Notes: generated from the letters alone by a model not told the origin. DNA of 64,000 nucleotides from an uncultured Actinomycetota bacterium (GCA_963796315.1 CAWCLH010000020.1:1121879-1185878); one strand, 5' to 3'; positions 28,867-46,280 are shown, numbered from the stretch's first letter. Made by a program: numbers and translations.

Positions 28867-28883
28867 TACTACTGAACGTAGTA
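28867..28883. promoter_or_regulatory. BlaI-box-like dyad TACTAC-TGAAC-GTAGTA
   Basis: Perfect 6+6 inverted repeat, 112 bp upstream of the response-regulator start (28995). Confidence 0.55.
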
Positions 28884-28994
28884 ACAAGCGCCGGGCGAAG
28901 TACGAGAGGGGTGAGCGCGGGTGACGGACACGGCCACCCAGACGCGGCCCCGCCGTAGCTGAGAGCCCCGACCGCACTCGATCCGGAGCGACCC

Positions 28995-29702
28995 GTGACC
29001 TCCTCTCCCACCTTGCCACCGCACATCCTCGTCGCCGACGACGACGACAACCTTCGCCGGCTCGTGGCCGCGTACCTGCAGCGCGAAGGGTACCGGGTGA
29101 CCGAGGCGGCCGACGGGAACTCGGCCTACCAGCAGGCCGAGTCCGAGCACCCGGACCTGGTGGTCCTGGACGTCATGCTGCCGGGAGCCAGCGGTCTGCA
29201 GATCGCCCGCAAGCTGGGCGGACGCGTCCCTGTGCTCATGCTCACGGCCCTGGGAGAAGAGGGCGACGTGCTGACCGGGTTCGACGCCGGGGCCGACGAC
29301 TACCTGGTCAAGCCCTTCAACCCCAAGGAGCTGGTCGCGCGAGTGCGGGCCATCCTCCGTCGCTCCGGCGCCGATACCGCCGAAGCCGACGAGACCGAAC
29401 GCTCCCTGACCCGGGGCGGTCTGGCCCTCGATCCTCGTTGCCGGGAAGTCACCCTGCGCGGAGCCGTCCTCGAGCTGACCGCCAAGGAGTTCGAGCTTCT
29501 GCGGGCGCTGATGGAGCACCCCGGGTGGGTGTTCAGCCGGGACGAGCTGCTGGAATCGGTTTGGGGCTATCAGATAGCCGGCGAGACGCGGGTGGTGGAC
29601 ACGCACATCGCCAATCTGCGCAAGAAGATCGAGGACGACCCGGCCGAACCTCGCTACATCCGGACGGTCCGAGGCGTCGGGTACAAGTTTCAGGAACCAT
29701 GA
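28995..29702 (+). CDS. OmpR-family response regulator
   Basis: 235 aa with ILVADDDDNLRRL, DLVVLDVMLPG and winged-helix RYIRTVRGVGYKF. Confidence 0.9.
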   Translation: MTSSPTLPPHILVADDDDNLRRLVAAYLQREGYRVTEAADGNSAYQQAESEHPDLVVLDVMLPGASGLQIARKLGGRVPVLMLTALGEEGDVLTGFDAGADDYLVKPFNPKELVARVRAILRRSGADTAEADETERSLTRGGLALDPRCREVTLRGAVLELTAKEFELLRALMEHPGWVFSRDELLESVWGYQIAGETRVVDTHIANLRKKIEDDPAEPRYIRTVRGVGYKFQEP

Positions 29703-30782
29703 GACTTCGCTGGAAACTCTTCCTCACGTACCTCGCGGTGATCGCCGTCATCGTCGGGACCGTCGCGTTGCTGGTCCGAAGCGTGGCCGTAGGCGCGGTC
29801 ACCGGCCACATGGGCGGGTTGGGCGGGATGATGGGGTCCATGCACTCCGATCTGGAGCTCGCCATCGATCGCGGCGTCTCGCAGGCCCTGCTGGTCGCCG
29901 TCGTGGTCGCCGCGGTCGTCGCCGTGGGGGTGAGCTACGTGGTGTCCGGTTGGGTCACCAGGCCCATCCACCGCAGCGCGCAGGCCGCCAGGCGCATCGC
30001 CCGCGGAGAGTACGGGCAGCGGGTGACGGGGGGCTCGGCCGACGAGATCGGCGAGTTCATCGAGGCCTTCAACGAGATGGCCGGAGAGCTCGAGGCGGCG
30101 GAGCAACGGCGGGCGGAGTTGCTCGCCACCATCTCGCACGAGATCCGCACCCCTCTGGCCACCGTCCGCGGCTACATGGACGGTCTGCTCGACGGGGTGG
30201 TGCCGGCCGAGCCCGAGACGTACGTCCTGGTGCGCCGAGAAGCCGACCGCCTCACCCGGCTGGTGGGTGACATCGAGCGCCTCTCGCGCCTGGAGGCCCG
30301 GGCGGAGCCGCTCACCATCACGACCGTCGATATCGCCTCCGTCGCCGAGCAGGTGATCCGCGGGCTGCGGCCGCTGTTCGAGGAGAAAGGGCTGACCCTC
30401 GAGCTCGAGCAGACCTCACCCCGTCCCCTCGTCCAGGCGGATCCGGACAAGGTCATGCAGGTGCTGACCAACCTGCTGACCAACGCCCTGAAGTACACGG
30501 AGAGAGGCGGGGTGGCCATCAAGGTCGAGACGGACGGGCCCGGCTTCGTCCGCGTGACCGCCAGCGACACCGGCGTCGGCATCCCGCCCGACGACCTTCC
30601 CCACGTCTTCGAACGCTTCTACCGGGTGGACAAGTCCCGGTCGAGCGAAGGAGGCGGGGCCGGCATCGGGCTCGCCGTGGTCCGGTCCTTGGTCACCCAG
30701 ATGGGCGGGGAGGTAGCGAATCGACAGTGTGGTCGGCGAGGGGACCACCGCGACGTTCACCCTCCCCCGCAAGCAGGCGTAA
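29699..30782 (+). CDS. HAMP-domain sensor histidine kinase, frameshift near 30719
   Basis: ATG 29699 overlaps the regulator stop. H-box ISHEIRTPLATVRGY. LTNALKYT, DTGVGIPPDDLPHVFERFYRVD, GGAGIGLAVV. After MGGEVA the alternative frame gives IDSVVGEGTTATFTLPRKQA, ending at TAA 30780-30782. Confidence 0.8.
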
Positions 30783-30847
30783 GCCGCAGGCCGTCCACCA
30801 CTCCAGAGGCGACGTCGAACGACCACAGGGACGCGAACAGGAACGGA

Positions 30848-31372
30848 CTAGAGCGTCTGCAGGTACTGCACCAGCGCGCGGACTTCGCTGTCGGTCAGCT
30901 GCCAGAGCGGCATGGGAGCCTTGAGTCTGTCCCCCTCGGGATCGATACCGTCCCTGACCGCGCGAGCGAAGCTCGCTTCATCGAAGGGGGTCTGGGGCTT
31001 GCCCTCGGGGTCCCGAGGCGAGGCCAGAGTGCTCCAACGGATATCGGGCGCGGTGAAACGCCCCATCATCATGTTCACCGTCTGGCCCCGGCCGTCCCGG
31101 CCGTGGCAATCAGCGCAGGCGACGCCTCCGCCCATCATCCCCACCCCGGTGGAGCGTGGGATGGGTCTCCCACTCGCGTCCGTCCCTGTCAGGTAGATGC
31201 GTTCACCGAGTGACCCGTAGGTGCCTTGCCCCGGCGAATGCCAAGGGGAGAAACGGTACAGGGGCCCTCCCGTGGGCAGGGTGAGGGCCAGCAGCACACC
31301 CAAGGCCAGGACGCCGCCGACAATCAGGATGATCCCGGCCGTCAGTGGCCCCCGGCGTCGATAGATGGCCAT
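30848..31372 (-). CDS. Membrane-anchored mono-haem c-type cytochrome
   Basis: 174 aa with an N-terminal TM helix and haem motif CADCHG. Confidence 0.75.
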   Translation of the reverse strand: MAIYRRRGPLTAGIILIVGGVLALGVLLALTLPTGGPLYRFSPWHSPGQGTYGSLGERIYLTGTDASGRPIPRSTGVGMMGGGVACADCHGRDGRGQTVNMMMGRFTAPDIRWSTLASPRDPEGKPQTPFDEASFARAVRDGIDPEGDRLKAPMPLWQLTDSEVRALVQYLQTL

Positions 31373-31381
31373 AGCTCGTTC

Positions 31382-31663
31382 CTATCTCTCCTCCGTCAGG
31401 TCTTGCTTGCGCCGGAGGAACTCTTCCCGATCGATGTCGCCCTTGGCGTAGCGCTCCTCCAGTATCTGCAGCGCACTCGTGGTCGAGGGCGCGGTTGATC
31501 CGGACGATCCAGGGGCCATGGGGTGCGATTCTCCGGCCGATCCGCCACCGCCCCCGATGCCGCGAACCACCAACACCACCCCGACAACGATGGCGGCCAC
31601 GAACAGGAGCGCGAGCACCCAGATGAACACACTGCCCCCGCCACTGTTCCATCCGTCCATCAT
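31382..31663 (-). CDS. SHOCT-domain membrane protein
   Basis: ATG 31663 follows GGAGG. One TM (VFIWVLALLFVAAIVVGVVLVV) and the C-terminal SHOCT-like LQILEERYAKGDIDREEFLRRKQDL. Confidence 0.7.
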   Translation of the reverse strand: MMDGWNSGGGSVFIWVLALLFVAAIVVGVVLVVRGIGGGGGSAGESHPMAPGSSGSTAPSTTSALQILEERYAKGDIDREEFLRRKQDLTEER

Positions 31664-31928
31664 TTCGCCGCCTCCTTGATGGCGTGGCCTCCCGGACGTA
31701 GTGCCTCCCCCGAAAGCAGGTCGGCGCAAACTCGACGTCGAACCGCTCACGTCAGTCGGGTCGACGGCCGACCATCCGACCGAAGCAGTCTCCCAGCCCA
31801 ACGGGCAGCCCTTCACACCACGGACGCCCTGCTTTCTTTGCATGTTCTTCACCTCGCAGAGACACCAACCAGACGAGGACGCCGGAGAATGGTGGTGTCA
31901 GATACGCGACTACCAAGGAGACGACCAC

Positions 31929-32426
31929 GTGAACGACGGACTCAAGCGCGGAGCGGTGATCGCCGCGATAGGCGTTGTCGGCCTACTGGGCATAGCCGCC
32001 GTTACTTCCGGCCCCAACGCGGGCGCAACACCGATCACCAGCGCTGCGGTGGCGCCGTCTCGAGCACAGTCCGCGGAGCTCACCGCGAAGTCGACTGTCG
32101 AGACGACAGCGAGTCCCACGCAACCGGGAGCGACCGATAAGGAGCTGCGCCAGCAGATCGTGGACATGCTCCAAGAGCGCATGGGCCTGTCCGCCAAGGA
32201 GGCCGATCAGCAGGCCGACACGATGGTCCAGCACATGCGCGAGGTCCACGGTAACGAGGCCGGCCAAGTGGCGGCTGCGTGCGGCGATGGTGATGCTCTC
32301 CAGCAAGGCGGGCAGTCTTCGTACGAGGACATGATGGGCGGGGGCACGGGCTCCATGATGGGTTCGTCTACTGGCTCCGTGATGGGCGGCTCCGTCGGCT
32401 CGATGATGGGAAACGATTCGCTGTAG
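31929..32426 (+). CDS. Membrane-anchored protein with a Met/Gly-rich C-terminus
   Basis: In-frame GTG 31929 (the ORF is open from 31701). TM GAVIAAIGVVGLLGIAAV. C-terminus YEDMMGGGTGSMMGSSTGSVMGGSVGSMMGNDSL. Confidence 0.55.
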   Translation: MNDGLKRGAVIAAIGVVGLLGIAAVTSGPNAGATPITSAAVAPSRAQSAELTAKSTVETTASPTQPGATDKELRQQIVDMLQERMGLSAKEADQQADTMVQHMREVHGNEAGQVAAACGDGDALQQGGQSSYEDMMGGGTGSMMGSSTGSVMGGSVGSMMGNDSL

Positions 32427-32436
32427 TCCTCGATAG

Positions 32437-32727
32437 GTGAAGCCTGCCCGGCGAATGAAGAGCCGGGCAGGCTTCCCAGCGCCCCGTCATTGCGCGATCC
32501 GGCCGGGGCGCGGTCGTTTTCTGGGACTCTCGCGGATGTGCACCCACCTGGGCTGCGTCGTCAAGCGGGAGACCAAAGTCGAAGAGTTCCACTGTCCCTG
32601 CCACGCGGGCGTCTTCTCCTCCACCGGGGAGGTGCTGTCTGGTCCGCCGCTTCGCCCCCTACCCCGACTGAAGCTGAGCGTGGAGGGGAACGACATGTGG
32701 GCGGACGGCTGGCAGCCGACGGACTGA
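32437..32727 (+). CDS. Rieske [2Fe-2S] domain ORF (bc/b6f-type motifs), probably N-terminally truncated
   Basis: 96 aa with CTHLGC...CPCHAG. The first ~13 codons are encoded by the terminator-like hairpin, and there is no TM anchor or N-terminal beta strands. Confidence 0.45.
   Translation: MKPARRMKSRAGFPAPRHCAIRPGRGRFLGLSRMCTHLGCVVKRETKVEEFHCPCHAGVFSSTGEVLSGPPLRPLPRLKLSVEGNDMWADGWQPTD
32439..32475. terminator. Perfect 14-bp stem hairpin, no U tract
   Basis: GAAGCCTGCCCGGC-gaatgaaga-GCCGGGCAGGCTTC, starting 13 nt after the stop of the 31929..32426 gene. Confidence 0.5.
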
Positions 32728-32737
32728 CAGGCGTCGG

Positions 32738-33340
32738 CTAACGGGCGGCGGCAGCCAGAGCGACCAGGTCCTCAACGGTAGTGGCCCCGACCTTGGTCGT
32801 GACGATCCTGCCCTGAGCGTCGATCGCCACCGCGGTCGGCACCCCGCTCACGAAGTAGTCGCCGGCGATCGAGCCGGCGGGGTCTTGGAGGATAGGAAGG
32901 TGGTATCCGCCCTCGCGCATGAAGGCTTCCACGTCGGCGCGCGCATCCTGGATATCGATGAGAAGAAGCTGGGCGTCCTGCTTGTGCTCTCGATAGAACC
33001 TATCGAGTGCCGGGGTCTCCCCCCGGCAGGTGGGTCACCAGCTGGCCCAGAAGATCAACAGTAACGGTCTTCCCCGGTACACCTCGAGGGAGACCGGCTT
33101 GCCCTCGAAGGTGATGCCGCTGAAGGTGGGAGCCGCTCGCAGAGCCGAGACGGCCCCGTCACTCGAAGCCGCGCCCTCCTGCGTCCCCGCCGGCCGGCCC
33201 CGGCTCGTCGAGAACCAGAGGCCGAGAACGAGCACCAGCAGCAGGACGGCCGCCGTGATCGCCGCGGTCCCACGAGCGGACGACCGGGGAGCGGCGGTGG
33301 CTCCGTCGGCTTCGCGCTCGTCGCGACCGTCCTCCTGCAT
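32738..33340 (-). CDS. Second TlpA/ResA-like thioredoxin-fold protein with in-frame TGA (33035-33037): W-U-P-T-C
   Basis: ORFs 33035..33388 and 32738..32932 share a frame. Hand translation gives ...RPLLLIFWASW-TGA-PTCRGETPALDRFYREHKQDAQLLLIDIQ..GVPTAVAIDAQG. One TM anchor. ATG 33340 overlaps the ABC ATPase stop (TGATG). Confidence 0.8.
33009..33027 (-). promoter_or_regulatory. Candidate SECIS-like hairpin downstream of the UGA in the second TlpA-like gene
   Basis: mRNA GCCGGGG-GGAGA-CCCCGGC: perfect 7-bp stem with a 5-nt loop, starting 7 nt after the UGA. Confidence 0.5.
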
Positions 33341-34068
33341 CACGGCGCCAGCGCGAACGTCTCCCGACCTTCGCCCGAGAGCTCGCACGCGGCGGGTCGG
33401 TCGTCACAGGTGATGCGGCCGTCGCGGATCTGGATCAAGCGGTCCACGTTGGCGGTGGATTCCGGGTTGTGGGTCACCATGATCACCGCGTGGCCGCGGT
33501 CGGCCAGCTCGCGGAGCAGGATGAGGATCTGCTGCCCGGTCGCCTGGTCCAGGCTGCCCACCGGTTCGTCGGCCAGGATGACGGGCGGGTCGTTCACGAC
33601 CGCGCGGGCGATCGCCACGCGGCCCTGCTCCCCTCCGGAGAGCTCGGAGGGTACGCGCCGGGCCTTCCGCTCGTCCAATCCCACCCGGCAGAGCGTGTCC
33701 AGGGCGCGGTCGGCCTTGCCCGGGTCCTTGAGGATGGCCAACGGCAGCATGACGTTCTCCACCGCGGACAGGTAGGGGATCAGCTCCAGCTGCTGGAACA
33801 CGAACCCGATGTACTCGCGGCGCAGATCCGCCTGACGCTCCTGACTGAGCGCGTAGACGTCGATGCCATCCACCAGCAACCGCCCGGTGGTGGGCGGGTT
33901 CATCGCCCCCAGGATGGAGAGGAGCGTGGTCTTCCCGGACCCGGAGGGACCCATGATGGCGACGTACTCGCCCCGCTCGATATCCAGGCTGACCCGATCC
34001 AAGGCGGTGACCCGGGCTTCGCCTTCCCCGTAGGAGCGGCTCACGTCTTCGATGCGTACCAGGGACAC
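33340..34068 (-). CDS. ABC transporter ATP-binding protein (MacB/LolD type)
   Basis: 242 aa with GPSGSGKTTLLSILG, LSGGEQGRVAIARA and ILADEPVGSLD. Confidence 0.9.
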   Translation of the reverse strand: MSLVRIEDVSRSYGEGEARVTALDRVSLDIERGEYVAIMGPSGSGKTTLLSILGAMNPPTTGRLLVDGIDVYALSQERQADLRREYIGFVFQQLELIPYLSAVENVMLPLAILKDPGKADRALDTLCRVGLDERKARRVPSELSGGEQGRVAIARAVVNDPPVILADEPVGSLDQATGQQILILLRELADRGHAVIMVTHNPESTANVDRLIQIRDGRITCDDRPAACELSGEGRETFALAP

Positions 34069-34081
34069 GTCCTTACCTCCG

Positions 34082-35239
34082 TCAGATGTACTTGAGAGCG
34101 GTCGCCGGGTCCATGTTGGCCGCCCGGCGGGCCGGGTAGAGAGCGGCCAGCATCCCGACCAGGTAGGCCAGCGCGATACCGGCCAGGATCACCAGCGGAT
34201 TGGGCGCCACGGTCAAGGAGAGGCTGGGCACCAGCGACGGCACCACCAGCCCGGCGGCGACGCCGACCAGGATCCCCGTCAGCGCTCCCCCGCCGCTCAG
34301 GAGGGCCGACTCGAGCAGGATGAGCTTTGCGATGTGCCGTTGCTTGTACCCGACGGCGCGGAAGACGCCGATCTCCTTCTGACGTTCCTTCACCGAGGTC
34401 AGCATGGTGATCATCACCACCAACCCTGAGATCAGCACGATCAGTAGGGTGATCGCCAGCCCAAAGCCGGCCAGTGAGGAGTTCGCCCGATTGGTGAACT
34501 CGATGCTCTTCTTCACCGAGACGACGGAGGACCCGGGGATGCTGCGCTCGATCTCTTTGCTCAGGCGGTCGACGGCGGTGGTGCTGGCAGCCGTGACCTC
34601 GATCAGGTTGACCTCGCCCCGGTGTCCGGTGAGCTCGGCGAGCGCGGGCAGGGGCAGGATGACCAGGTTGTCTTCCTCGCCGCCGATCTCCTGCAGCACG
34701 CCGGCGACGGTGAAGCGCCGACCGTCCAGCTCGATCGACTTCCCCGCATCCAGGCCGAGGGTGTTCCGGACGTTGAGGCCCAGCAGCACCTCGTCGGCTG
34801 CCTGGGGCAGCCGGCCTTCCACCCGCCACCAGAGCTTGACCTTGAGGCTCTCCGCCAGGTCGGTGCCCATGGCCAGGAAAGAGCGCTCTCCCACCTTCAC
34901 CGGTTGCAGCAGCACCGGGATGGCGGCGGCGACGTCGGCCTTGGACGGCACCGCCCGGATCCGATCCACGTCGGCCAGCTTCAGGTACCGCACCTCCCCG
35001 GTCCCCGCGCCGCCGACGTCCACCCCGCCGTAGCTCAGGCTGAGCTCGGTCGTCGCCGGGGTGACCACCAGGTTGGAGCCGAACTTGCTCAGCTTGTCGT
35101 CCATGGTGGCCCGAAGGGAGAAGACCAGGGAGAGGACCAGCACGAAAGCGGCCACCGCCACCGAGAGTCCGAGCACGACCAGGACGGCCTTGCCCTTGCG
35201 GCGGCGCAGATTACCGAGGGCGATGGTGCGAAGGTCCAT
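34082..35239 (-). CDS. FtsX-like ABC permease
   Basis: 385 aa with N-terminal IALGNLRRRKGKA, a large periplasmic loop, and a C-terminal 3-TM FtsX domain. Confidence 0.85.
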   Translation of the reverse strand: MDLRTIALGNLRRRKGKAVLVVLGLSVAVAAFVLVLSLVFSLRATMDDKLSKFGSNLVVTPATTELSLSYGGVDVGGAGTGEVRYLKLADVDRIRAVPSKADVAAAIPVLLQPVKVGERSFLAMGTDLAESLKVKLWWRVEGRLPQAADEVLLGLNVRNTLGLDAGKSIELDGRRFTVAGVLQEIGGEEDNLVILPLPALAELTGHRGEVNLIEVTAASTTAVDRLSKEIERSIPGSSVVSVKKSIEFTNRANSSLAGFGLAITLLIVLISGLVVMITMLTSVKERQKEIGVFRAVGYKQRHIAKLILLESALLSGGGALTGILVGVAAGLVVPSLVPSLSLTVAPNPLVILAGIALAYLVGMLAALYPARRAANMDPATALKYI

Positions 35240-35242
35240 CGG

Positions 35243-36400
35243 CTACACCGGCCTCATGGCGAGGGTAGGGCTGAGACGCGCCGCCTGCCAGGCAGGATAG
35301 AGACTGGCCAGCAGGACCACTCCCAGCGAGGCACCCAGCGCGACGCCCAGGCCGGCAGGGCTGGGGGCCAGCGTCTCGCTCACCCCCGCCACCACGCGGG
35401 CCAACGGCCCCGCACCCAGGGTCGCGAGCAGGAGCCCCCCGATCCCCCCCGCGAAGGCCAGCGCCAAATTCTCCACCAGGATGATGGAAAAGATGTGCTT
35501 GCGCCGGTAGCCGATCGCCCGGAAGATGCCGATCTCGCCGCGTCGGTCACGCACCCCTGCCAGCGTCGAGGAGAGCACGATCAGGCAGCCCACCAGGATC
35601 ATCAGCCCGGACAGGACGGCGCTGAACAGACGGAACTGATCGATCAAAAGCCGTCGTGACTCCACGGCTTTCAGCAGGGCTGAGACGCGGGCGGTGGGTA
35701 GAGCGGTCGAGATCTGAGCGTTGATCAGCTCGATGGGGCAGGTGCTGCAGAAGGCGGATACCTCGATCAGGCTGAGCTCGTCACCTCGCTGCCAGAGCCG
35801 CTGGGTGGTGGCCAGATCCAGGTAGAGCAGATCGTCCTCTTGGGTACCGGTCTGCTCCAGCAGACCGGCCACCGTGAAGCGTTCCCCCTTCAGGGTGACC
35901 GTGTCGCCGCTCTTCAACCCGAGCAGAGCCGCGGCTCGACTCCCGACCAGGACGTCGTGGTCCTTCTGGGGGCGTGCTCCATCGATGTGCCACCATTTCT
36001 TCAAGCCCAGCTCTTCTCTCCAGTCGACGCCGGCCGCCAGCACCCGCCGGCCGCCGACCTCGGCAGCCACGATCAACTCCGGGGCGACCCGGTTGATGTT
36101 CTGCTTGTTCTTGATCCCCCGGATCTTGGCGACGTCGGCCAGGTGGAGAGGCGTGACGTCGTAGGTCAGTCCGCCCAGGCTCACGCCCCCGTAGGTCAGG
36201 GGAAGGTCCTTGCTCCGCGGTACCACCACGATGTTCGCGCCGTAGTCGTCCACCTTGTTCGCCAGATCGCGCTCGGCGCTGCGGGTGACCAGGTAGAGCA
36301 CGCTCACGATGCCCACGGTGGCGACGATGACCAGCAGCAGGAGAGCGCTGCGGGACAGGTGCTGGCGCATGTTCCGAAGAGCGATATGCGAGAGACGCAT
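35243..36400 (-). CDS. FtsX-like ABC permease (second copy)
   Basis: ATG 36400 gives MRLSHIALRNMRQHLSRS. Same architecture as the neighbouring permease. Confidence 0.85.
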   Translation of the reverse strand: MRLSHIALRNMRQHLSRSALLLLVIVATVGIVSVLYLVTRSAERDLANKVDDYGANIVVVPRSKDLPLTYGGVSLGGLTYDVTPLHLADVAKIRGIKNKQNINRVAPELIVAAEVGGRRVLAAGVDWREELGLKKWWHIDGARPQKDHDVLVGSRAAALLGLKSGDTVTLKGERFTVAGLLEQTGTQEDDLLYLDLATTQRLWQRGDELSLIEVSAFCSTCPIELINAQISTALPTARVSALLKAVESRRLLIDQFRLFSAVLSGLMILVGCLIVLSSTLAGVRDRRGEIGIFRAIGYRRKHIFSIILVENLALAFAGGIGGLLLATLGAGPLARVVAGVSETLAPSPAGLGVALGASLGVVLLASLYPAWQAARLSPTLAMRPV

Positions 36401-36521: not shown

Positions 36522-37214
36522 CTACTGCCGGGGGGTCCAAGCCTCCAGGTCGGCGGTGGCCACCACGATCTTGCCGTTCTGGTTCTGCGCCTTGATCGGG
36601 TCCGGCGGGAAGTCGGTGCAGCCGCCGGAGATGCCCTGGAGCGTGTTCAGGTCCCACTTGGTGAAACAGGTGTCGCAGACCAGGGTGTTGCCCTCGATGT
36701 GGAAGCTGTTGCTGCGGCAGGGCTCGCAGAACGATGACGCCACCACCAGGTTCCCGCTGGGCGCGACGTACGAGATCAGGGGCAGCTTGCCGCCGGTCAG
36801 ACTCTGCCATTCGCCCGGGAACGGATTGGTCCGCTGGTACTTCATCATGACCAGCTTGCTCTGCTGCACGTCGGCAGCGGAGAAGCTGGCCGAGGTGCCG
36901 CTGACGGCCAGGTCGATCGGCGTCTGGGTGATCGTGCCGCCCGCAGAGCCGCCGGTCGATGAGGCGGTGGTCACGTCGCTGACCTGCACGCCGCTCGAAA
37001 CCTGCTTGCCCGACTGCACCTTCTGGTAGCCCGCCATCCCCAGGAAGGCGACGACCGCGATGGCGGTGACGACGATGATGACCCGCTGCAGGGGGAACTT
37101 GCCCGCCTCCTCGAAGCGTTGCCGCTTGCTATCGAGGTTGTCCAGATGCGCGGGCTGGCTAGTGCGCGGACGGGCGGCCGGAGGCTTCTTCTGCTGACCT
37201 TTGGATCGACTCAC
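36522..37214 (-). CDS. DUF2318-like Cys-rich membrane-anchored protein
   Basis: GTG 37214 follows AAGGGGAGAG. One TM (VIIVVTAIAVVAFLGMAGY). C-terminal domain SSFCEPCRSNSFHIEGNTLVCDTCFTKWDL..GGCTDFPP. Confidence 0.65.
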   Translation of the reverse strand: MSRSKGQQKKPPAARPRTSQPAHLDNLDSKRQRFEEAGKFPLQRVIIVVTAIAVVAFLGMAGYQKVQSGKQVSSGVQVSDVTTASSTGGSAGGTITQTPIDLAVSGTSASFSAADVQQSKLVMMKYQRTNPFPGEWQSLTGGKLPLISYVAPSGNLVVASSFCEPCRSNSFHIEGNTLVCDTCFTKWDLNTLQGISGGCTDFPPDPIKAQNQNGKIVVATADLEAWTPRQ

Positions 37215-37299: not shown

Positions 37300-37318
37300 C
37301 TACTACGCCACATAGTAG
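37300..37318. promoter_or_regulatory. BlaI-box-like dyad CTACTAC-GCCAC-ATAGTAG
   Basis: 6 of 7 positions pair. Lies 86-104 bp upstream of the DUF2318 start. Confidence 0.5.
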
Positions 37319-37331
37319 AAGGGCAATGCTC

Positions 37332-37350
37332 CTACGACGATTTGTAGTAG
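37332..37350. promoter_or_regulatory. BlaI-box-like dyad CTACGAC-GATTT-GTAGTAG
   Basis: 6 of 7 positions pair. It is the second box of a tandem pair, 32 bp centre to centre from the first. Confidence 0.5.
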
Positions 37351-37369
37351 AGAGAGGGGAGGCGAGGGA

Positions 37370-38396
37370 TCAGTGGGTGTCGCCGGCGGGGAGACGCGTG
37401 ACCGAGTGGGTGCCGTCGTGGCAGGTGTGGGTCGGTGCCTCGCCGGGGAGCGTCACGTCGGTGAAAGCGAGGGCGCTGCCCGTGAAGGCGAACAGGAGGA
37501 CGGTCACCACCAAGACGGTCCCCGACGAGGTACCGCCGTGAGGTGACCGCCACTTGGCCGAACACGAGTCCCCGGATCCGCTCCACGACGTCGCCCTCGT
37601 CGGCGAAAGCCAGGCCGGGCGAGGTGGTGCCGGGAAGCAGGGCGCGGGCGAACTTCTGCAGGCTGGAGGCGACCACGAGCGGGTCTCCGGTCCGCCGCCT
37701 GGCGAAGTCGTCGGCGGCCAGTTCCTGTGCCCGGCGCAACCGGACGACGGCCGGACGGACGCCGGGCAGCAGCGCGAAGGTCGCGACAAAGGTCCGCGCG
37801 ACCAACAGGATCAGGTTGTCCCGAGCGATAAGATGTCCCTCCTCGTGGGCGAAGACCGCCTGCACCTCCTGCTCATCCAAGCCGGACAGCAGACCGGACG
37901 AGATCACGACCCGGGGCCGCAGGGTGCCCATCGTGTACGAACGCGGGACCTCGTCGTCCACCACATAGGTCCGCCCGCGGAGACCGGGAGGCAGCGGACC
38001 TCCGTACAGGACCCCCTCTTCGAGGGCACGGGCCACGTAGCGGGAAGAGGAGTGGACTTGGCTGAGCGCTGCATAGACCGCGACGGCGATCAGCCCGAGA
38101 AGGATCCCCCCCATGAAGAAGGAGAAGGTGGCGTTGGCCCACCCGGGAAGGGCTCGCTGGCAGGCGACGGCGACCTTGCAGACCAGTCCGGTCCGATCGA
38201 GGACGGCATGGGGCAGGTAGCGCAGGAACACCGCGACCAGCAGCAGCAACGTGGCCAGAGCGGCGCCGGAGATGGACGCGAGGTAGGTCAGGACAAGCGC
38301 GCGGGGAGCCAGCCGAGACTCCAGGAACCGGCGGACCAGCCAGGGCCCGGCCAGCAGGAGGGCGTAGGTCAGCGCGAGGGTCAGGCCGACGATGAC
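37370..38396 (-). CDS. M56-family (BlaR1-like) membrane metalloprotease without a penicillin-binding sensor domain; frameshift at the C run 37520-37523; start unresolved
   Basis: HEEGH zinc motif in QAVFAHEEGHLIARDN. After SRRYLVG the alternative frame gives TM TVLVVTVLLFAFTGSALAF and the tail TDVTLPGEAPTHTCHDGTHSVTRLPAGDTH (stop 37370-37372). TM1-like coding (VIVGLTLALTYALLLAGPWLV) extends to ~38396 with no in-frame ATG/GTG/TTG. Confidence 0.7.
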
Positions 38397-38812
38397 TCCC
38401 GCTCCTGGCGCATCTGCTGGATGATGTCGGCGAGGACGTCGAGTTGGCCCGCATCCTCGTTGGTGAGACTCTCCACGAAGTGAGTGAGGACCGGCCGGTT
38501 GACCGAACCGAACAGCCCGCTGACGACGGTCTTGACCACTCCGGTACAGAAGGCGTCTCGAGTCTGCACCGGCTCGTAGATGTAGGCCCGGCCTTCCTGA
38601 CGGCGGCGCAGCAGCGCTTTCTCCGCCAAGCGACTCATCACGGTCATCACCGTGGTGTAGGCGATCTCACGCCGTTCCAGCAGGCACTCGTGCACCTCCC
38701 GGACCGACGCCGATCCGAGATCCCACATGCACTCCATGATCTCGGCCTCCAGGTCGCCGAGGACCTGCCTCAGCCCCTGGCTCCCGATATTCAGGCTCAA
38801 CGGTTCGTCCAT
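38381..38812 (-). CDS. blaI: BlaI/MecI/CopY-family winged-helix repressor
   Basis: ATG 38812 follows AGGAGG. LGDLEAEIMECMWDLGSASVREVHECLLERREIAYTTVMTVMSRLAEKALLRRRQEGRAYIYEP. No C-terminal CxC copper motif. Confidence 0.85.
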   Translation of the reverse strand: MDEPLSLNIGSQGLRQVLGDLEAEIMECMWDLGSASVREVHECLLERREIAYTTVMTVMSRLAEKALLRRRQEGRAYIYEPVQTRDAFCTGVVKTVVSGLFGSVNRPVLTHFVESLTNEDAGQLDVLADIIQQMRQERESSSA

Positions 38813-38841
38813 GCAGGTCCCTCCTGGTGCGACGGCACGCA

Positions 38842-38858
38842 TACTACCAAACGTAGTA
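38842..38858. promoter_or_regulatory. BlaI-box-like dyad TACTAC-CAAAC-GTAGTA (probable autoregulatory site)
   Basis: Perfect 6+6 inverted repeat, 30-46 bp upstream of the blaI-like start codon. Confidence 0.6.
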
Positions 38859-38930: not shown

Positions 38931-39074
38931 CTACTGCGGCAGCTGCATCTCCCGTTCCAGCCGCTCGATCTCCTTGCGAAGGCCCGTCTGGCGCCGGGCG
39001 ATAGAGATCATGTAGGCCCCGAGGATCACCCAGATGACCGCGTAGCCGGCGAACAGAAAACCCAAGTCGTTCAC
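38931..39074 (-). CDS. ccmD: CcmD-like small membrane protein (47 aa)
   Basis: GTG 39074 gives VNDLGFLFAGYAVIWVILGAYMISIARRQTGLRKEIERLEREMQLPQ. Lies 10 nt after ccmC. Found by hand translation. Confidence 0.6.
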   Translation of the reverse strand: MNDLGFLFAGYAVIWVILGAYMISIARRQTGLRKEIERLEREMQLPQ

Positions 39075-39084
39075 AACGACGCTC

Positions 39085-39831
39085 CTATCGCATCAGGTGT
39101 TGATGACGAAGACGCTCGATCCTTGAGGTCAGATCCATCTGGCGGTAGCGCACGATCAAGAGGTACGCGTAGACGAGCGTGATGGCGAACAGCGAGAACA
39201 TCAGCACGAGCGTCATCCGCGAATCCAGGTTGATGGCGTTCTCGGTGATGACGGTGGGGTGGATGGTCCGCCACCAACGCACCGACATGAAGACGATGGG
39301 TACGTCCACCCACCCCACGATGCCGAAGACCGCCGCCACCCGGGCCGTCTTGTGCCCGGGCTGCGACGCGGACCGCAGCATGAGGTAGGCCACGTAGATG
39401 AACCACAGCACCAGGGTGGTGGTCAGACGCGGGTCCCACGTCCAGTAGGCGCCCCAGATGGGCCGGGCCCACAGGGGACCGGTGATCAGGGTGACGGTGG
39501 TGAAGACGACGCCGATCTCGGCCGACGCGGCCGCGATCCGGTCGTAGCGCAGGTCCTTCTTGATCAGGTAGAGGATGCTCGCGATGAACACCACCGTGAA
39601 GGAGGGCCCCAGGGCGACCCAGGCGCTGGGGACGTGGAAGTAGAAGATGCGCTGCACGTCGCCCATCTGGGCCTCGGTCGGCGCGTAGAGCAGCGCCCCG
39701 TAGAGGGCGATGACGACGGACACCAGGGCCGCGACGCCCAGAGCGTCCAGCCAGAGTGAGCCGCCGGTGAGGCCGCGGGTCCCGGTCGAGGGCAGGCCGC
39801 GGTCGAGGGTCTGGTCGTGTGCCATGCTCAT
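39085..39831 (-). CDS. ccmC: Haem exporter protein CcmC
   Basis: 248 aa with the WWD motif WGAYWTWDPRLTTTLVLW. Confidence 0.9.
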   Translation of the reverse strand: MSMAHDQTLDRGLPSTGTRGLTGGSLWLDALGVAALVSVVIALYGALLYAPTEAQMGDVQRIFYFHVPSAWVALGPSFTVVFIASILYLIKKDLRYDRIAAASAEIGVVFTTVTLITGPLWARPIWGAYWTWDPRLTTTLVLWFIYVAYLMLRSASQPGHKTARVAAVFGIVGWVDVPIVFMSVRWWRTIHPTVITENAINLDSRMTLVLMFSLFAITLVYAYLLIVRYRQMDLTSRIERLRHQHLMR

Positions 39832-40505
39832 TCCTCGAGGACGAAGTCGAAGGTCATGATCGAGAGTGCCAGGAAGATCACGTCATAGACTACCAGCAGT
39901 AGGAGCCAGGAGGAGCCCTCGCCCAGCGAGCGCCCGTCCAGCACGTGCCCCGACGACTTGGCGGCCGCCAGGATCACCGGCACCATCACCGGGAACAGCA
40001 GGATGGACAAGATGACGTCACGGGCCTTGAGCCCCACCGACACTGCGGAGAACAGGGTGCCCACGCTGCTGAACCCGATGGTGGCCAGCACCAGGATCAA
40101 GCCCAGCGGGGCCACGGTGCGGGCCAGGTCGACGTTGTAGAGCACCGCGAAGAAGAAGAACACCACGACGCCCATCAGCAGCAGGAAGACGAAGTTGCCC
40201 AGGAACTTGCCCAGGTAGATCACGCTGCGGTCCACCGGGCAGAGCAGCAGCCCCTGCAGGCAGTCGTTCTCCTTCTCCGAGGCGAAGGAACGGTTGAGGC
40301 CCAGGATGCCGGCGAAGGTGAACGCGGCCCAGAGCACCCCCGGCTTGACCAGGTTCTCCTCCCGCAGGCCCGGCTCGATCCCGAAGTTGAAGATCAGGAT
40401 GACCAGGAAGCCGAAGAGAAGCATGGAGAAGACCATCTCGCGGGTGCGCAACTCCCCCACGATGTCCTTCCAGGCGATGGCCCACGCCCGGTTCAGGAAT
40501 CCCAT
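39828..40505 (-). CDS. ccmB: Haem exporter permease CcmB
   Basis: ATG 40505 gives MGFLNRAWAIAWKDIVGELRTREMV. Six TM helices. Overlaps ccmA and ccmC. Confidence 0.85.
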   Translation of the reverse strand: MGFLNRAWAIAWKDIVGELRTREMVFSMLLFGFLVILIFNFGIEPGLREENLVKPGVLWAAFTFAGILGLNRSFASEKENDCLQGLLLCPVDRSVIYLGKFLGNFVFLLLMGVVVFFFFAVLYNVDLARTVAPLGLILVLATIGFSSVGTLFSAVSVGLKARDVILSILLFPVMVPVILAAAKSSGHVLDGRSLGEGSSWLLLLVVYDVIFLALSIMTFDFVLEE

Positions 40506-41264
40506 CGGTAGTCCTTCCCCACGTACTCGAAGTACGTCTGCTCGAAGGCCGCCCGGTCGATCTGGCCGATAGGCCGACGGAACACGGTCTTCCCCAGCAC
40601 CTGAATGGACACCTCGTCGCACATCTCGAGCCCCTGCTCCAGGTTATGCGTGGTCAGGACGATGCTCCGTTCCCCCGTGTGCAGGGTCTCGAGGACGCTG
40701 CGCAGCATGCGGGAGGCATGCTGGTCCAGGCCGGTGTAGGGCTCGTCCAGGAACATGATGTCCGGTTCGTGCAGCAGGGCGCGCGCGATGGACAGGCGTT
40801 GCTGCATGCCCCGAGAGTACGTGGCCACCCGGTCCTCCATGCGGCCGTAGAGCCCGACCTCCTCCAGCAGCTTCGTCGCCCGGTCTTCCAGGTCGGCGAC
40901 GCCGTACATCGTGCCGTAGAAGGTCAGGTTCTCGAAGGCGGAGAGGCTCGGGATAGAGGTAGGTATTGTGCGAGATGACCCCGATGCGACGGCGGAGGAT
41001 GTCCGCTCCCTGCACCACGTCGGTCCCCGCCAGCAGCACCTGACCTTCGGTGGGCTTGATCTGGGTCGAGAGGACCTTGATCAGCGTGGTCTTGCCGGCA
41101 CCGTTCGGTCCGAAGATGGTGAGGAACTTACCCTGCTCCAGCTGAAGGTCCAGACCGCGAAGCGCCGCGAAATGGCCAAAGTACTTCCATAGGCCCCGGA
41201 CCTCGATGGCGAGGTCCGGGGTGGGTGGGCCGGGCTCCAGATTGTCAGGGGCAGCGACGGCCAA
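40493..41264 (-). CDS. ccmA: Haem exporter ATPase CcmA, frameshift near 40949-40952
   Basis: TTG 41264 lies 2 nt after the upstream stop. FGPNGAGKTTLIKVL. After ISHNTYLYP the alternative frame gives SLSAFENLTFYGTMYGVADLE...YSRGMQQRLSIARALL..MFLDEPYTGLD. Confidence 0.8.
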
Positions 41265-41266
41265 GG

Positions 41267-41879
41267 TCAGGCGGTCACCTCGGCGCCGCAGCCTCCGCAG
41301 AAGCGCGCCCCCGCCTTCAAGGGGGCGCCGCACTCGTCGCACGCGGCCCCCGCGTGCCCGTTGGGAGAGGTCTCCATCACGGCGACGGCCGACTGCTCCA
41401 GCAGGTGGTCGCCGCAGCCTGCGCAGAAGCGGGCCCCCGCCGGGTTGAGGTGGTCGCAGGCCAGGCAGACCAGCTGCCCGTCGTCCGCCGGGGCAGCTCG
41501 CCGCGGACGCTTCGGAGACGCGGCCGCTTGCTTCTGCGCGACAGCCGGCCGAGGCTGCCGCGCCGCGGTCTGCGTGGCCCGGGGCCGGCTCTTCGCCTTG
41601 GGCGCGGGCCGCTCGGCTTCGGCGATCGCTTCCAGGATCTCCACGGCGTTGGCCCGGTACTTGAGCGTCGAGCTCCCGGAAGTCGGACTCGGACAGTTTG
41701 CCCGTCCGGAAGTCGAACTCGAGCTCCTTGAGCGCCGAGTAGGTCGACTCCTTCCGCCGGTGCAGCTCCTCGACCTCCTCGGGAAGCTCCATCTCTTCTT
41801 CGTCGGTCCACTGGCGCAGCAGCGGATAGCCTACGAAGGCCACTGCCGCCAGCGCCATGAGGATCTTGATCAGCATCAC
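41267..41879 (-). CDS. CcmI-like N-terminal module fused to a double zinc ribbon, frameshift near 41668-41671
   Basis: MMLIKILMALAAVAFVGYPLL...YSALKELEFDFRTGKLSESDFREL. After the shift, TLKYRANAVEILEAI...LVCLACDHLNPAGARFCAGCG...ACDECGAPLKAGARFCGGCG. Confidence 0.6.
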
Positions 41880-41922
41880 GGTCGTTCGTCTCCTCGGTCT
41901 CGCCGTCGCGGACGCCTGGGTC

Positions 41923-42419
41923 TCAGTCGAAGTCCTTCAGCTCGTCCTCCATCTTGTGGACGAGCTCATCGCGCACCGGGGACTGCAGCTCCACCTGTCC
42001 CTCGGGGGTCGCGGCCACGAGCGCCGCGCGGCGCTTGGCCCAGCCGCCGATCAGAAAGTAGATGGCGATACCGCCGCCGATCAGGACGGCGAAGGGGATC
42101 AGCCAGGCGGCCAGGTTGAAGCCGCTCTTGGTGGGCGCGGCCAGGACACGGTCGCCGTATTTCGTGACGTACGAGTCGATCACCTGCTGAGGCGTCTCGC
42201 CCGCCGCCAGCTGGGCGTGGACGTCCTGCTTCGCAGGGATGCCCCACTCGCAGTTCTGGTGCGGGCACTCCTTGAGCACCGCGTTGCAGCCGCACAGGCA
42301 CATGATCTTCGAGGTCACCGACGAATCCGCAGGCGCCGCCTGTCGCCGGCGCGGTCCCCAGAAGGCCGGCGCCGAGCGCTAGGAGGAGCACCGCCGGGCC
42401 GAGCCACAGGCGCCGAAAA

Positions 42420-42430
<11 letters not shown>
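41923..42430 (-). CDS. ccmH: CcmH/NrfF-like protein, frameshift near 42333
   Basis: ATG 42430 overlaps the ccmF stop by 11 nt. The signal peptide [29 protein letters not shown] is in one frame. The mature part VTSKIMCLCGCNAVLKECPHQNC...AAWLIPFAVLIGGGIAIYFL is in another (ORF 41923..42318). Confidence 0.7.
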
Positions 42431-44423
<1,993 letters not shown>

Positions 44424-44526
44424 GTGGTTGGTTCCTCCGTGTCACCTGGGTCTGGGATCCGCCAGTGCCGACGTCCTCGCCGTCCGCCGACGAAACGACG
44501 AGACGAACGGCGCGACGGCACCTCTT

Positions 44527-44973
44527 CTACTTGCCGGTCGACGTGCCCGTCGGCGCCTCGGACTTCGCCTTCGCCTCGTACTTGGACGGGCACTTGGCGA
44601 GCAGATCGACCGAGCTGAACTGCTTGCTCTGCAGGTAGTCACCGGTCACGACCACCTCGGGGGCGGGCTCGTCGGCACGCGGCTCCCGGAAGGTGTCGGG
44701 CACCGGGCCGGTGTGCGACACGAGCAGGACCTTATTCGGGGAAGCCTTGTCGTGGATCTGGAAGGTGATGGGCTGGCCCACGCCGCCCTTCTTGATACTG
44801 CCGACGACCAGGTCCCCAGAGACCTTGACGTTCTGGGACGGGCCCTTGGCCTGAAGCTCGGTGACGGTGTAGTAGTAGACCATGTTCCCCCGCACCGCGT
44901 AGAACGCGAGGGAGGCGATGGCGGCCACGATCACCAGGCCGCCGATCACGAACTTCAGCTTCTTGTTGCCCAT
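44527..44973 (-). CDS. ccmE: Haem chaperone CcmE, Cys-type (CxxxY) variant
   Basis: ATG 44973 follows GGAGGAAGG. TM anchor, and VDLLAKCPSKYEAK where canonical CcmE has HxxxY. Confidence 0.85.
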   Translation of the reverse strand: MGNKKLKFVIGGLVIVAAIASLAFYAVRGNMVYYYTVTELQAKGPSQNVKVSGDLVVGSIKKGGVGQPITFQIHDKASPNKVLLVSHTGPVPDTFREPRADEPAPEVVVTGDYLQSKQFSSVDLLAKCPSKYEAKAKSEAPTGTSTGK

Positions 44974-45025
44974 ATGCGCCTGTCCTTCCTCCATGGATCC
45001 TCCGACCCGCATCGACCGTACAGGA

Positions 45026-45502
45026 TCAGTACAGCAGTCGCTCGAGGCCCGTCCCACTCATCACCCGGTTGGTCACTTTCTCCGGGAACAGTTTTTCCGG
45101 GCATTTTACCAAAATCTGCGTAGCCTCGAAGACGCCGCCCTTGCCCGTGGAGCCCGTCACCACCACCTCTTGGAAGGGAGCGAGGCGTTCGGGGTAGGGC
45201 CCGGTGTAGACGACGTCCATGCGGCCGCCCTTCGATCCCTCGAGGACGAAGCGGACCTCCTGCGTCGACGGGTCCTGGTTCAGGCTGCTCTCGGCCACCC
45301 GGCCGCCGACCCGGACATTGGACAGCGTACCGGCCGCCTTGGCCTCGTCGACGGTCTGGTAGAAGTCTCCACCGACGGTCAGGAAGAGCACCAGCCAGAG
45401 CAGGGCCAGCACGATGACCACGATACCGACGATCAGCTTCCACCTGCGCCACCAGGGGGTCGAGACGGGGGGCTGCAGGTCCTGGGTCTCGGTCACCGTC
45501 AC
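45026..45502 (-). CDS. Second CcmE-like paralog (C-P-E-K-L, no Tyr at +4)
   Basis: GTG 45502 follows AGGAG. TM WKLIVGIVVIVLALLWLVLFL. FYQTVDEA, and TQILVKCPEKLFPEK at the haem-binding position. Confidence 0.7.
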   Translation of the reverse strand: MTVTETQDLQPPVSTPWWRRWKLIVGIVVIVLALLWLVLFLTVGGDFYQTVDEAKAAGTLSNVRVGGRVAESSLNQDPSTQEVRFVLEGSKGGRMDVVYTGPYPERLAPFQEVVVTGSTGKGGVFEATQILVKCPEKLFPEKVTNRVMSGTGLERLLY

Positions 45503-45507
45503 TCCTG

Positions 45508-46182
45508 TCAGTCGGCTTTCGCGGCTTGGAGACCGCTCTCGACCAGCTCTCGCAGGCCGGCATCTCCTAGGCCCGGCTCGATGGCGAGCCAGTACAGGTC
45601 CCTGCCGACGCGGAAGTAGTAGTGCTTCTGCCCCATGCCGTCCAAAGCCTGGACCTCGACGCCCTGCGCCGTCATCGTCTGCGGGTGTGTGAAGGGCGAC
45701 GTGCCGGCGGCGATCTTGGTCTTCATGCGCTCCATAAGGGCTTCGGCATCCTGGAGCCTCACCGATCGGCTGACCCACAGGGTCGCAGCCCCGCCGGTGC
45801 CGTAGGTGGCCAGCCAGGCCTCGTCCAGCCCGGCGCCCAACCCCTTGCCGTGGAGTTGCTCCACCTGGATGATGGCCTGCTCGCCGTCCAGGTACTCGCT
45901 CAAGGACAGTCCCGCGATGGTTCTGGGCACCGTCGCCGCCACCCCCGCCACCGGCGGCTGGATGGTACTCGGGCTGCCCGCCGGGTCGCCGAGCGTGGAG
46001 GTCGTCCCGGAGGCAGCGGTCTGCACAGCCGCCGGGGGAGCGTCCGCCGTCTGACCGCACCCCAACAGCACCAGGGCCAGGACCAGGAGGAGCACGGACG
46101 CCCCGACCCGCACCGGCGCCGCGAAGACCGAGGCGGCGATCCGCCCTCTCCACTGTCCGCCTCCTGCCCGCATGTGGGTCAC
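45508..46182 (-). CDS. Uncharacterised lipoprotein, first gene of the ccm operon
   Basis: 224 aa with lipobox LVLLGCGQ. No family recognised. 5 nt upstream of the second ccmE. Confidence 0.65.
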   Translation of the reverse strand: MTHMRAGGGQWRGRIAASVFAAPVRVGASVLLLVLALVLLGCGQTADAPPAAVQTAASGTTSTLGDPAGSPSTIQPPVAGVAATVPRTIAGLSLSEYLDGEQAIIQVEQLHGKGLGAGLDEAWLATYGTGGAATLWVSRSVRLQDAEALMERMKTKIAAGTSPFTHPQTMTAQGVEVQALDGMGQKHYYFRVGRDLYWLAIEPGLGDAGLRELVESGLQAAKAD

Positions 46183-46263
46183 CTCGACCTCGTCATCGAC
46201 TCCAGCCGGACCGGCTGGAGAAGCTCCGCTTGTGAAAGCCGTCGCGTAGTGGCGAGCGGATTT

Positions 46264-46280
46264 TACTACTCCGCGTAGTA
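46264..46280. promoter_or_regulatory. BlaI-box-like dyad TACTAC-TCCGC-GTAGTA
   Basis: Perfect 6+6 inverted repeat in the 165-bp gap, 82 bp upstream of the lipoprotein/ccm operon start (46182). Confidence 0.6.

Follow-up and report, generated by a model that had tools for sequence, protein, structure and literature searches.

Five palindromes around a cytochrome c maturation locus

We analysed a stretch of 64,000 nucleotides from an uncultured Actinomycetota bacterium (GCA_963796315.1, CAWCLH010000020.1:1121879-1185878), hereafter the 64-kb window, in which five copies of the dyad TACTAC-N5-GTAGTA lie among genes for a BlaI/MecI/CopY-family repressor, a membrane metalloprotease and the cytochrome c maturation (Ccm) machinery. 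The original prediction had proposed that these dyads define a putative BlaI/M56 regulon. This proposal gained support from the geometry of the promoters, from conservation in Thermoleophilia, from recurrence in other phyla and from the operator class of Mycobacterium tuberculosis blaI, and the five dyads are very probably BlaI operators that define the regulon of the repressor encoded at 38381-38812. They are located as follows.

28867..28883: dyad 1, perfect; 112 bp 5' of the response-regulator GTG at 28995, overlapping the predicted -10 box TATACT (28865-28870)
37301..37317: dyad 2, one mismatch; promoter-proximal, within the spacer of TTGCCC-18-TAGAAT
37333..37349: dyad 3, one mismatch; 32 bp centre-to-centre from dyad 2, 5' of the -35 box
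38842..38858: dyad 4, perfect; 30 bp 5' of the blaI ATG (38812), its right half forming the -10 box TAGTAT
46264..46280: dyad 5, perfect; filling the spacer of TTGACG-17-TAAAAT, 82 bp 5' of the lipoprotein gene start (46182)

The genes that these dyads precede were assigned by translation and by Pfam and NCBIfam matches, which confirmed the identities first proposed for the blaI-like, protease, ccm, DUF2318, permease, ATPase, redoxin and OmpR/histidine-kinase genes.

28995..29702, plus strand: OmpR-family response regulator (translation; NCBIfam OmpR-type matches, all under equivalog cut-offs)
29699..30782, plus strand: histidine kinase with HAMP, HisKA and HATPase_c domains, its short outer loop GHMGGLGGMMGSMH being rich in Met and His; apparent frameshift near 30715
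32738..33340, minus strand: ResA/TlpA-like thiol:disulfide oxidoreductase, its W-U-P-T-C motif containing an in-frame TGA at 33035-33037; last gene of the FtrD-like/ABC operon
33340..34068, minus strand: ABC transporter ATPase (PF00005, E 8e-34)
34082-35239 and 35243-36457, minus strand: two MacB/FtsX-type permeases (Pfam)
36522..37214, minus strand: FtrD-like (DUF2318) membrane protein of 230 amino acids with two CxxC pairs (PF10080, E 1.5e-18); first gene of the operon
37368..38396, minus strand: M48/M56 membrane metalloprotease (HEEGH); apparent frameshift near 37530-37540
38381..38812, minus strand: BlaI/MecI/CopY-family repressor of 143 amino acids (PF03965, E 4.2e-30, 104.9 bits against a cut-off of 22.6)
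38931..46182, minus strand: ccm operon overall, with the same gene order in loci L081, L083, L085 and L170
38931-39092, minus strand: ccmD, assigned by position and size
39085-39831, minus strand: ccmC (Cytochrom_C_asm)
39828-40622, minus strand: ccmB (Pfam CcmB)
about 40493-41300, minus strand: ccmA, split by a frameshift near 40950
to 41879, minus strand: double-zinc-ribbon gene, identified from orthologues; probable frameshift within 41300-41700
41923-42318, minus strand: ccmH (Pfam CcmH)
42420-44423, minus strand: ccmF (CcmF_C and Cytochrom_C_asm)
44527-44973, minus strand: ccmE (Pfam CcmE)
45026 to about 45511, minus strand: second ccmE (Pfam CcmE)
45508-46182, minus strand: lipoprotein without a Pfam match; first gene of the ccm operon

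The locus encodes every one of the System I proteins CcmA to CcmF and CcmH (Pfam matches for CcmB, CcmC, CcmE, CcmF and CcmH; ccmD by position and size; ccmA split by its frameshift). The earlier annotation of the ccm operon stands except for its "ccmI", which corresponds to a double-zinc-ribbon protein in the orthologues, while a TPR CcmH/CycH-like gene was found at 48383-49168.

A pattern scan with TACTACNNNNNGTAGTA at one mismatch or fewer gave exactly five matches in the window, at 28867, 37301, 37333, 38842 and 46264, and so recovered the three perfect and two one-mismatch dyads at the same positions; none was obtained in any of 100 dinucleotide-preserving shuffles (chance expectation 0). 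The runners-up, at 39888 and 42667, carry two mismatches and both lie in coding DNA. When the two hexamers were paired across gaps of 0 to 14, spacing 5 alone yielded TACTAC/GTAGTA pairs: four of the seven TACTAC copies in the window belong to dyads and the other three lie within one long gene at 57.8-58.8 kb, and four of the 14 GTAGTA copies are in dyads. Because the window measures 67.9% G+C (the earlier estimate was about 69%), 17-mers so rich in A+T stand out. Each of the five sites is intergenic, as had been claimed, and the quoted distances of 30, 82 and 112 bp agreed with the gene starts at 38812, 46182 and 28995. Dyad 3 abuts the stop of the protease reading frame as assembled and lies 19 bp past the stop (37368-37370) once the frameshift is corrected.

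Promoter geometry and conservation of the dyads

A consensus scan of 28000-47900 predicted only three sigma-70-like promoters, all overlapping dyads: TTGACG-17-TAAAAT at dyad 46264, TTGCCC-18-TAGAAT at dyad 37301 and ATCACA-18-TATACT at dyad 28867. This agrees with the earlier placement of the dyads in promoter positions. In an alignment of 35 sites from the window and its relatives, TTGAC stands 2-3 nt ahead of the dyad, whose last TA opens a -10 box TAnnAT; in blaI promoters the right half-site itself doubles as the -10 box TAGTAT. By filling the spacer and overlapping the -10 box, such an operator takes the classic position of a repressor site, and the promoter geometry fits a repressor role. 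The layout expected of autoregulation, a palindrome overlapping the promoter of blaI itself, is conserved in all orthologous loci.

Related genome loci encoding relatives of the repressor are named L001 and so on, the Thermoleophilia loci having been fetched singly. In six of six syntenic Thermoleophilia loci (L001, L081, L083, L085, L088 and L170) a dyad occupies the same three core positions, 5' of the lipoprotein/ccm operon, of blaI and of the FtrD-like gene, except that in L083 and L088 the first of them precedes the zinc-ribbon gene rather than the lipoprotein/ccm start. The half-sites alone are conserved among these dyads, and the N5 spacer and flanks vary. Gene calls were available for four loci, and there 13 of 14 sites with at most one mismatch are intergenic, the single coding exception falling within a conserved QYYVxQY stretch of CcmH. 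Among the 80 genome loci listed (1.32 Mb) the dyad was matched 45 times against 1.4 expected, and 36 of these 45 matches fall in the 6.3% of sequence directly 5' of blaI or 3' of the protease gene.

As a unit, blaI-protease-[dyad]-FtrD-like-ABC was met again in four Bacillota loci (L005, L006, L007, L009), in one of Candidatus Aquicultor (L011) and in two of other Actinomycetota (L015, L016). Additional dyads were found directly 5' of a zinc-ribbon-lipoprotein-ccmE-ccmF operon (L006, L015) and of an lgt paralogue (L007); genomes of the candidate phyla radiation carry a second dyad 5' of a DsbA-like thioredoxin gene (e.g. Woesebacteria, L030 11300-12106) and a KSB1 genome (L012 2537-4387) carries one 5' of a gene for a 617-residue fusion containing MerB (alkylmercury lyase).

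Other arrangements were met in further relatives. A Thermoleophilia metagenome-assembled genome (L168 11588-13700) has a tandem dyad pair before a small gene followed by one for a Fer4_5 polyferredoxin-like membrane protein. Chloroflexota relatives of blaI (L022, L023, L034, L054) have upstream of them the variant dyads TACGAC-N5-GTCGTA and TACCAT-N5-ATGGTA in the same 6-N5-6 layout, which hints that several related operator specificities share a TAC...GTA frame. In two more distant Actinomycetota loci, L167 (1-8947, 15334-19415) and L169 (1-3273, 9153-11153), blaI-protease-FtrD-like-ABC has on one side a haem biosynthesis operon (GluTR, PBG deaminase, ALAD, UroD, ferrochelatase, a radical SAM enzyme) and on the other genes for multihaem cytochrome c and for cytochrome b. 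Control of these flanking operons by the dyad was considered and dropped, as no dyad was found there at two mismatches or fewer.

These observations suggest the following regulatory arrangement. A repressor dimer would bind TACTAC-N5-GTAGTA in the spacer between the -35 and -10 boxes, or over the -10 box, and block RNA polymerase at four promoters. The repressed units would be the blaI-protease operon itself; the lipoprotein-ccmE-ccmE-ccmF-ccmH-(zinc ribbon)-ccmABCD operon; the operon for the FtrD-like protein, the MacB-type ABC transporter and the selenocysteine ResA-like thioredoxin, with two operators three helical turns apart; and, in this lineage, the OmpR/histidine-kinase pair.

The repressor, its protease and competing explanations

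The best homologues of the repressor are 70-95% identical to it, the named ones coming from uncultured Thermoleophilia, and its recognition helix IAYTTVMTVMSRL is identical in 34 of 34 homologues. Its best match in the PDB is M. tuberculosis BlaI, 2G9W (E 2e-18 to 7e-26), with 1SD4 and 1OKR also matched. The M. tuberculosis helix LAYTTVMAVLQRL (AYTTVM) is nearly the same, and in the fetched locus TACGACAGCGAGTAGTA (TACGAC-N5-GTAGTA) lies 60 bp upstream of blaI. On these grounds the window dyad falls in the mycobacterial BlaI operator class, that of a protein already studied by experiment. Such M. tuberculosis sites were reportedly footprinted by Sala et al. in 2009. For BlaI proteins of Clostridium thermocellum and for cyanobacterial PetR, inverted repeats with a 5-nt gap, laid out as 6-N5-6 or with a 3-N5-3 core, have been reported.

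The protease gene overlaps blaI in the window and overlaps or abuts it elsewhere, and the pairing is seen in all related loci. The protein matches PF01435 (M48) with 47.4 bits and has the HEEGH motif. Hydropathy places helices at 1-19, 39-57, 93-111 and 293-311, with an extra hydrophobic stretch at 195-213 inside the protease domain. After correction of the frameshift it ends in ...TDVTLPGEAPTHTCHDGTHSVTRLPAGDTH, with the tail THTCHDGTH; Pfam gave no match to a penicillin-binding domain, and the tail past the last helix is about 30 residues long. By homology with BlaR1 and PetP, we read these helices as a four-helix topology with a cytoplasmic protease loop. Since that loop must reach the repressor in the cytoplasm, the loop between helices 2 and 3 and the C-terminal tail would face outward.

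Cysteines in these two outward segments were surveyed by a search of 1.84 billion cluster representatives. All 21 of the closest 21 protease representatives have a loop C-x5-C together with a tail Cys; more widely, a tail Cys is present in 95 of the 126 representatives with a C-terminal helix, and Cys makes up 4.6% of tail residues versus 1.6% overall. A large subgroup has an HxxCHLPHP tail, Bacillota proteases have one cysteine directly past the last helix, and the M. tuberculosis protease tail has none. CXXCH was dropped as a general sensor motif because it occurs in only two of the 126 representatives. The candidate sensor is a trio of outer-face cysteines, the C-x5-C in the helix 2-3 loop and the tail Cys-His.

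In the repressor, F112 is invariant in homologues, and by alignment H111-F112 matches the cleavage position N101-F102 in the dimerisation helix of Staphylococcus aureus BlaI. The activated protease would cut the repressor in this helix at H111-F112 and thereby lift repression. Release by proteolysis through the co-transcribed M48/M56 protease is in our view a likely mechanism, and the account as a whole, a BlaI-family repressor with its partner protease, sensing by outer cysteines and the regulon described above, is probably the best explanation of the locus.

Several points weigh against this account. The motif distribution rests on the 64-kb window and the 10-kb flanks of related loci. The M56 family of Pfam (PF05569) is matched only marginally (31.6 bits against a cut-off of 31), M48 being the better match. 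Apparent single-base frameshifts relative to orthologues affect the kinase (about 30715), the protease (37530-37540), ccmA (40950) and probably the zinc-ribbon gene (41300-41700); they could be assembly indels typical of long-read metagenome-assembled genomes or real pseudogenes, and, if those in the protease, ccmA and kinase genes are real, parts of the circuit would be dead in this strain. The near-invariant C28, H41, C43 and C89 of the repressor could sense the signal directly, and support for copper or thiol stress as the signal is circumstantial. Finally, dyad 28867 departs from the shared TTGAC-N2-3-dyad-nnAT layout, and no dyad was found 5' of a 65%-identical regulator in L173, a locus of the L001 genome.

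The last two points bear on the claim that a dyad precedes the OmpR/histidine-kinase pair. Site and distance were both recovered, but the site is lineage-specific and is placed otherwise than the remaining ones, all of which share the layout that it lacks. Furthermore, the two-component genes lie within a stretch of about 10 kb (22840-32737) that separates the thioredoxin gene from ccdA (22102-22824), genes that directly adjoin in orthologous loci. This insertion also encodes Asp23, a BBE-type FAD oxidase, a SnoaL protein, a Rieske-domain protein, a monohaem cytochrome c (30848-31372) and a Met-rich protein (31701-32426). It is thus conceivable that only the three core sites are repressor operators and that the two-component site is non-functional or acts differently, as an activator site in the manner of PetR at petJ or as a roadblock. 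However, this site is a perfect dyad whose left half is overlapped by the predicted -10 box TATACT, and in L171 and L172 a perfect dyad with a different spacer persists 133 bp 5' of an 89%-identical regulator although the surrounding intergenic DNA is unalignable. We regard a restriction to the three core sites as possible and rather unlikely.

The nature of the two-component genes is suggested by their surroundings. The outer loop of the kinase is conserved in L171 and L173, the neighbouring protein at 31701-32426 has an MMGG-repeat tail that is kept in relatives, and in L173 (9293-11889, 17070-19987) the kinase/MMGG pair is found near SHOCT proteins, a CopA-type P-type ATPase and a cupredoxin. 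The Met-rich loop, the MMGG protein and these copper-related neighbours together suggest a copper-responsive module that was brought under BlaI control in this lineage.

A second alternative accepts the BlaI operators and has the repressor switched allosterically through its own Cys and His residues, by metal or disulfide, with a housekeeping or secondary role for the protease. Within the clade, C28, H41, C43 and C89 each reach 90% conservation or more, and neither M. tuberculosis nor S. aureus BlaI has them. CopY, of the same family, is metal-switched by Cu(I), and the best NCBIfam match of the repressor is CopY/TcrY (TIGR02698), albeit far under the cut-off (57.6 versus 121.95 bits). The repressor nevertheless ends in ...QQMRQERESSSA, which has no cysteines, and the CopY-type CxCx4CxC motif is not present; the protease gene follows blaI in every related locus examined, the cleavage-site Phe is invariant and the protease has conserved outer-face cysteines of its own. 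In the related PetRP system, degradation of PetR in vitro needed PetP and copper (10.1101/2020.07.31.226407). An allosteric switch in place of proteolytic release seems to us improbable.

Another possibility concerns the role of the protease tail. In ccm-bearing Thermoleophilia loci this tail reads (C)xxCH, as CAACH, CSTCH or CSGCH in four of them and xxxCH in three, including the window. Since (C)xxCH is the attachment motif of haem c, the tail could be an apocytochrome-like substrate or mimic through which the protease senses cytochrome c maturation itself, a speculative idea to which we give little credence. If it were true, the tail would be handled by the Ccm and thioreduction proteins under the repressor's own control: with an unmodified or oxidised tail the protease would be active and the operons on, with a reduced or haem-ligated tail they would be off, and the resulting feedback loop would fit maturation capacity to demand.

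Lastly, that the dyads are chance palindromes, terminator-like hairpins or repeat-element remnants is hardly tenable: every dyad is able to fold a hairpin of 6-10 bp (-5 to -10 kcal/mol), but these stems are weak, no T-run and no terminator call was obtained at any dyad and terminators were rejected on these grounds, no match is expected by chance, the half-sites alone are conserved in place of loops and flanks, and the dyads follow blaI genes across phyla and occupy promoter spacers rather than gene ends.

Function, signal and relation to known systems

By NCBIfam, the FtrD-like/ABC operon ends with a ResA/DsbE-like gene, which CcdA/DsbD follows in orthologues; in the window, ccdA lies across the insertion. 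The ccm operon itself has no CcmG-type thioredoxin gene. With this gap on one side and a CcdA-linked ResA/DsbE-like gene on the other, the two putatively repressed operons seem to supply both arms of cytochrome c maturation, haem handling and thiol reduction, together with a FetABCD-like transporter. The original prediction had called the redoxin a selenocysteine thioredoxin, and this was upheld: the in-frame TGA sits at the first Cys of the CxxC (FWASW-U-PTC, within W-U-P-x-C) and is common to five other genomes (L001, L081, L083, L085, L088). Two conserved hairpins lie 3' of this TGA, one with the 8-bp stem CUCGAUAG-GUU-CUAUCGAG, and the protein, which carries a lipobox, is probably an exported selenoprotein with a selenocysteine insertion (SECIS) element in its gene. 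No gene for tRNA-Sec was found in the 64-kb window.

As signal we tentatively propose, largely by analogy, either a thiophilic metal, for instance copper, or the oxidation of exported thiols. This is suggested by the three outer cysteines, often accompanied by histidines; by the PetRP precedent, which is copper-dependent and in which its authors suspect the same loop; by the prediction of DUF2318 proteins as members of the CsoR copper regulon in gut Clostridiales; by targets that include DsbA-like, ResA-like, CcdA-adjacent and MerB genes; and by the Met-rich two-component module. Copper damages periplasmic cytochrome c assembly. Either a thiophilic metal or thiol oxidation, both being harmful to cytochrome c maturation, would trigger derepression.

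Among the closest known systems is the PetR/PetP pair of Synechocystis (slr0240/slr0241), a BlaI/CopY-family factor and an overlapping gene for a sensor-domain-less M48/M56 four-helix protease (10.1101/2020.07.31.226407). There, too, an inverted repeat with a 5-nt gap serves as operator between the -35 and -10 boxes of the repressed petE, a c-type cytochrome gene is controlled, the cleavage-site Phe is conserved and the helix 2-3 loop was proposed as metal sensor (10.1101/2020.07.31.226407). The half-site differs, being GAC-N5-GTC as against TACTAC-N5-GTAGTA here; the PetP loop has two Met in place of C-x5-C, and a Cys-His tail is not mentioned for PetP. Its four-gene regulon (petE, petJ, slr0601, slr0602) takes in a cytochrome structural gene and not the maturation machinery. 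Copper dependence is shown for PetRP and inferred here.

M. tuberculosis BlaI/BlaR (Rv1846c/Rv1845c) shares the operator class, a near-identical recognition helix and a protease without penicillin-binding domain, but the protease tail lacks Cys and the repressor lacks C28, C43 and C89. The M. tuberculosis regulon likewise extends into respiration, BlaI repressing Rv1303, a gene transcribed together with the ATP synthase operon (PMC12565901). The S. aureus systems BlaI/BlaR1 and MecI/MecR1 have in common with the window the repressor fold (1SD4, 1OKR), an autoregulated repressor-protease operon, HExxH and the aligned N-F/H-F position; they differ in that the window protease has no penicillin-binding domain, the half-sites are others and no beta-lactamase or PBP2a gene is present. 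The five M. tuberculosis loci reportedly described in 2009 by Sala and colleagues are blaI-blaR, blaC-sigC, rv1456c, rv3921c and ATP synthase, a list without any operon for ccm, FtrD-like/ABC or thioredoxin. CopY/TcrY shares the Pfam family, the best NCBIfam match and a TAC...GTA-type palindrome. CopY has no partner protease and its cop box is TACAnnTGTA, not 6-N5-6; the window repressor differs from it also in lacking CxCx4CxC.

The transporter module resembles FetABCDEF of Campylobacter jejuni, which combines a DUF2318 protein, two FtsX-type permeases, an ABC ATPase and one or more membrane-anchored thioredoxins, but is linked to FetMP (Ftr1/P19) iron uptake and induced by low iron (PMC10783030). 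Neither FetM nor FetP was identified among the annotated genes of the window, where the module follows blaI-protease amid ccm genes, its FtrD-like protein is short (230 amino acids) and its thioredoxin contains selenocysteine. CenIR of Clostridioides difficile is a BlaIR-family pair without beta-lactam domain, as here; such pairs make up the majority of annotated BlaR proteins and their signals are not known (PMC13492132). CenIR controls a cell-envelope regulon (cdr_0474, cwp6), with no cytochrome or thiol-redox link reported (PMC13492132).

As far as sequence allows us to judge, both the mechanism (BlaI/BlaR family) and the operator (mycobacterial BlaI) are of types already known. What is new is the regulon, which joins a variant System I maturation operon to a FetABCD-like module and a selenocysteine thioredoxin and, in this lineage, extends to a two-component system; the cysteine-based sensor candidate is new as well. 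Proteolytic control of a Ccm system had been presumed undescribed; a literature search combining BlaI/BlaR with ccm terms returned no paper linking the two, although PetRP, with its cytochrome structural gene, is a partial precedent. To our knowledge, little is known of how bacterial Ccm machinery is regulated. One orphan BlaIR clade spanning at least three phyla would thereby gain a defined operator, a concrete sensor candidate and a coherent conserved regulon that also takes in lipoprotein-processing partners; the question of what it senses would narrow to three candidates, namely a thiophilic metal (copper or another), the oxidation of thiols and the attachment of haem, and the FetABCD-like module would be linked to cytochrome and thiol-redox biology beyond iron uptake alone.

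Upstream of the ccm operon, the window continues with the following genes.

46348-47592, minus strand: zinc-ribbon membrane protein (WPEYD motif and C-terminal zinc ribbon)
47456-48328, minus strand: Lgt
48383-49168, minus strand: TPR CcmH/CycH-like gene
49533-51362, minus strand: 609-residue fusion of pyridine-nucleotide-disulfide oxidoreductase and thioredoxin domains
51417-51965, minus strand: second CcmH gene

In the window no dyad was found 5' of the second CcmH gene or the 609-residue fusion, nor, at three mismatches or fewer, 5' of the Lgt, zinc-ribbon, TPR and second CcmH genes, save for a poor three-mismatch copy at 49269. Both tandem CcmE paralogues have a Cys in place of the usual haem-binding His (LAKCPSKY, LVKCPEKLF). 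CcmE of the CxxxY type is known from archaea and some bacteria; here the variant pair stands alongside CcmH and is kept in all Thermoleophilia loci. Additionally, Lgt, the WPEYD/zinc-ribbon membrane protein and the lipoprotein without Pfam match travel together with the variant ccm operon in Thermoleophilia, Bacillota and other Actinomycetota (L006, L007, L015), and in some genomes they are the first genes 3' of a dyad. This trio may represent unrecognised accessory factors of the variant ccm system.

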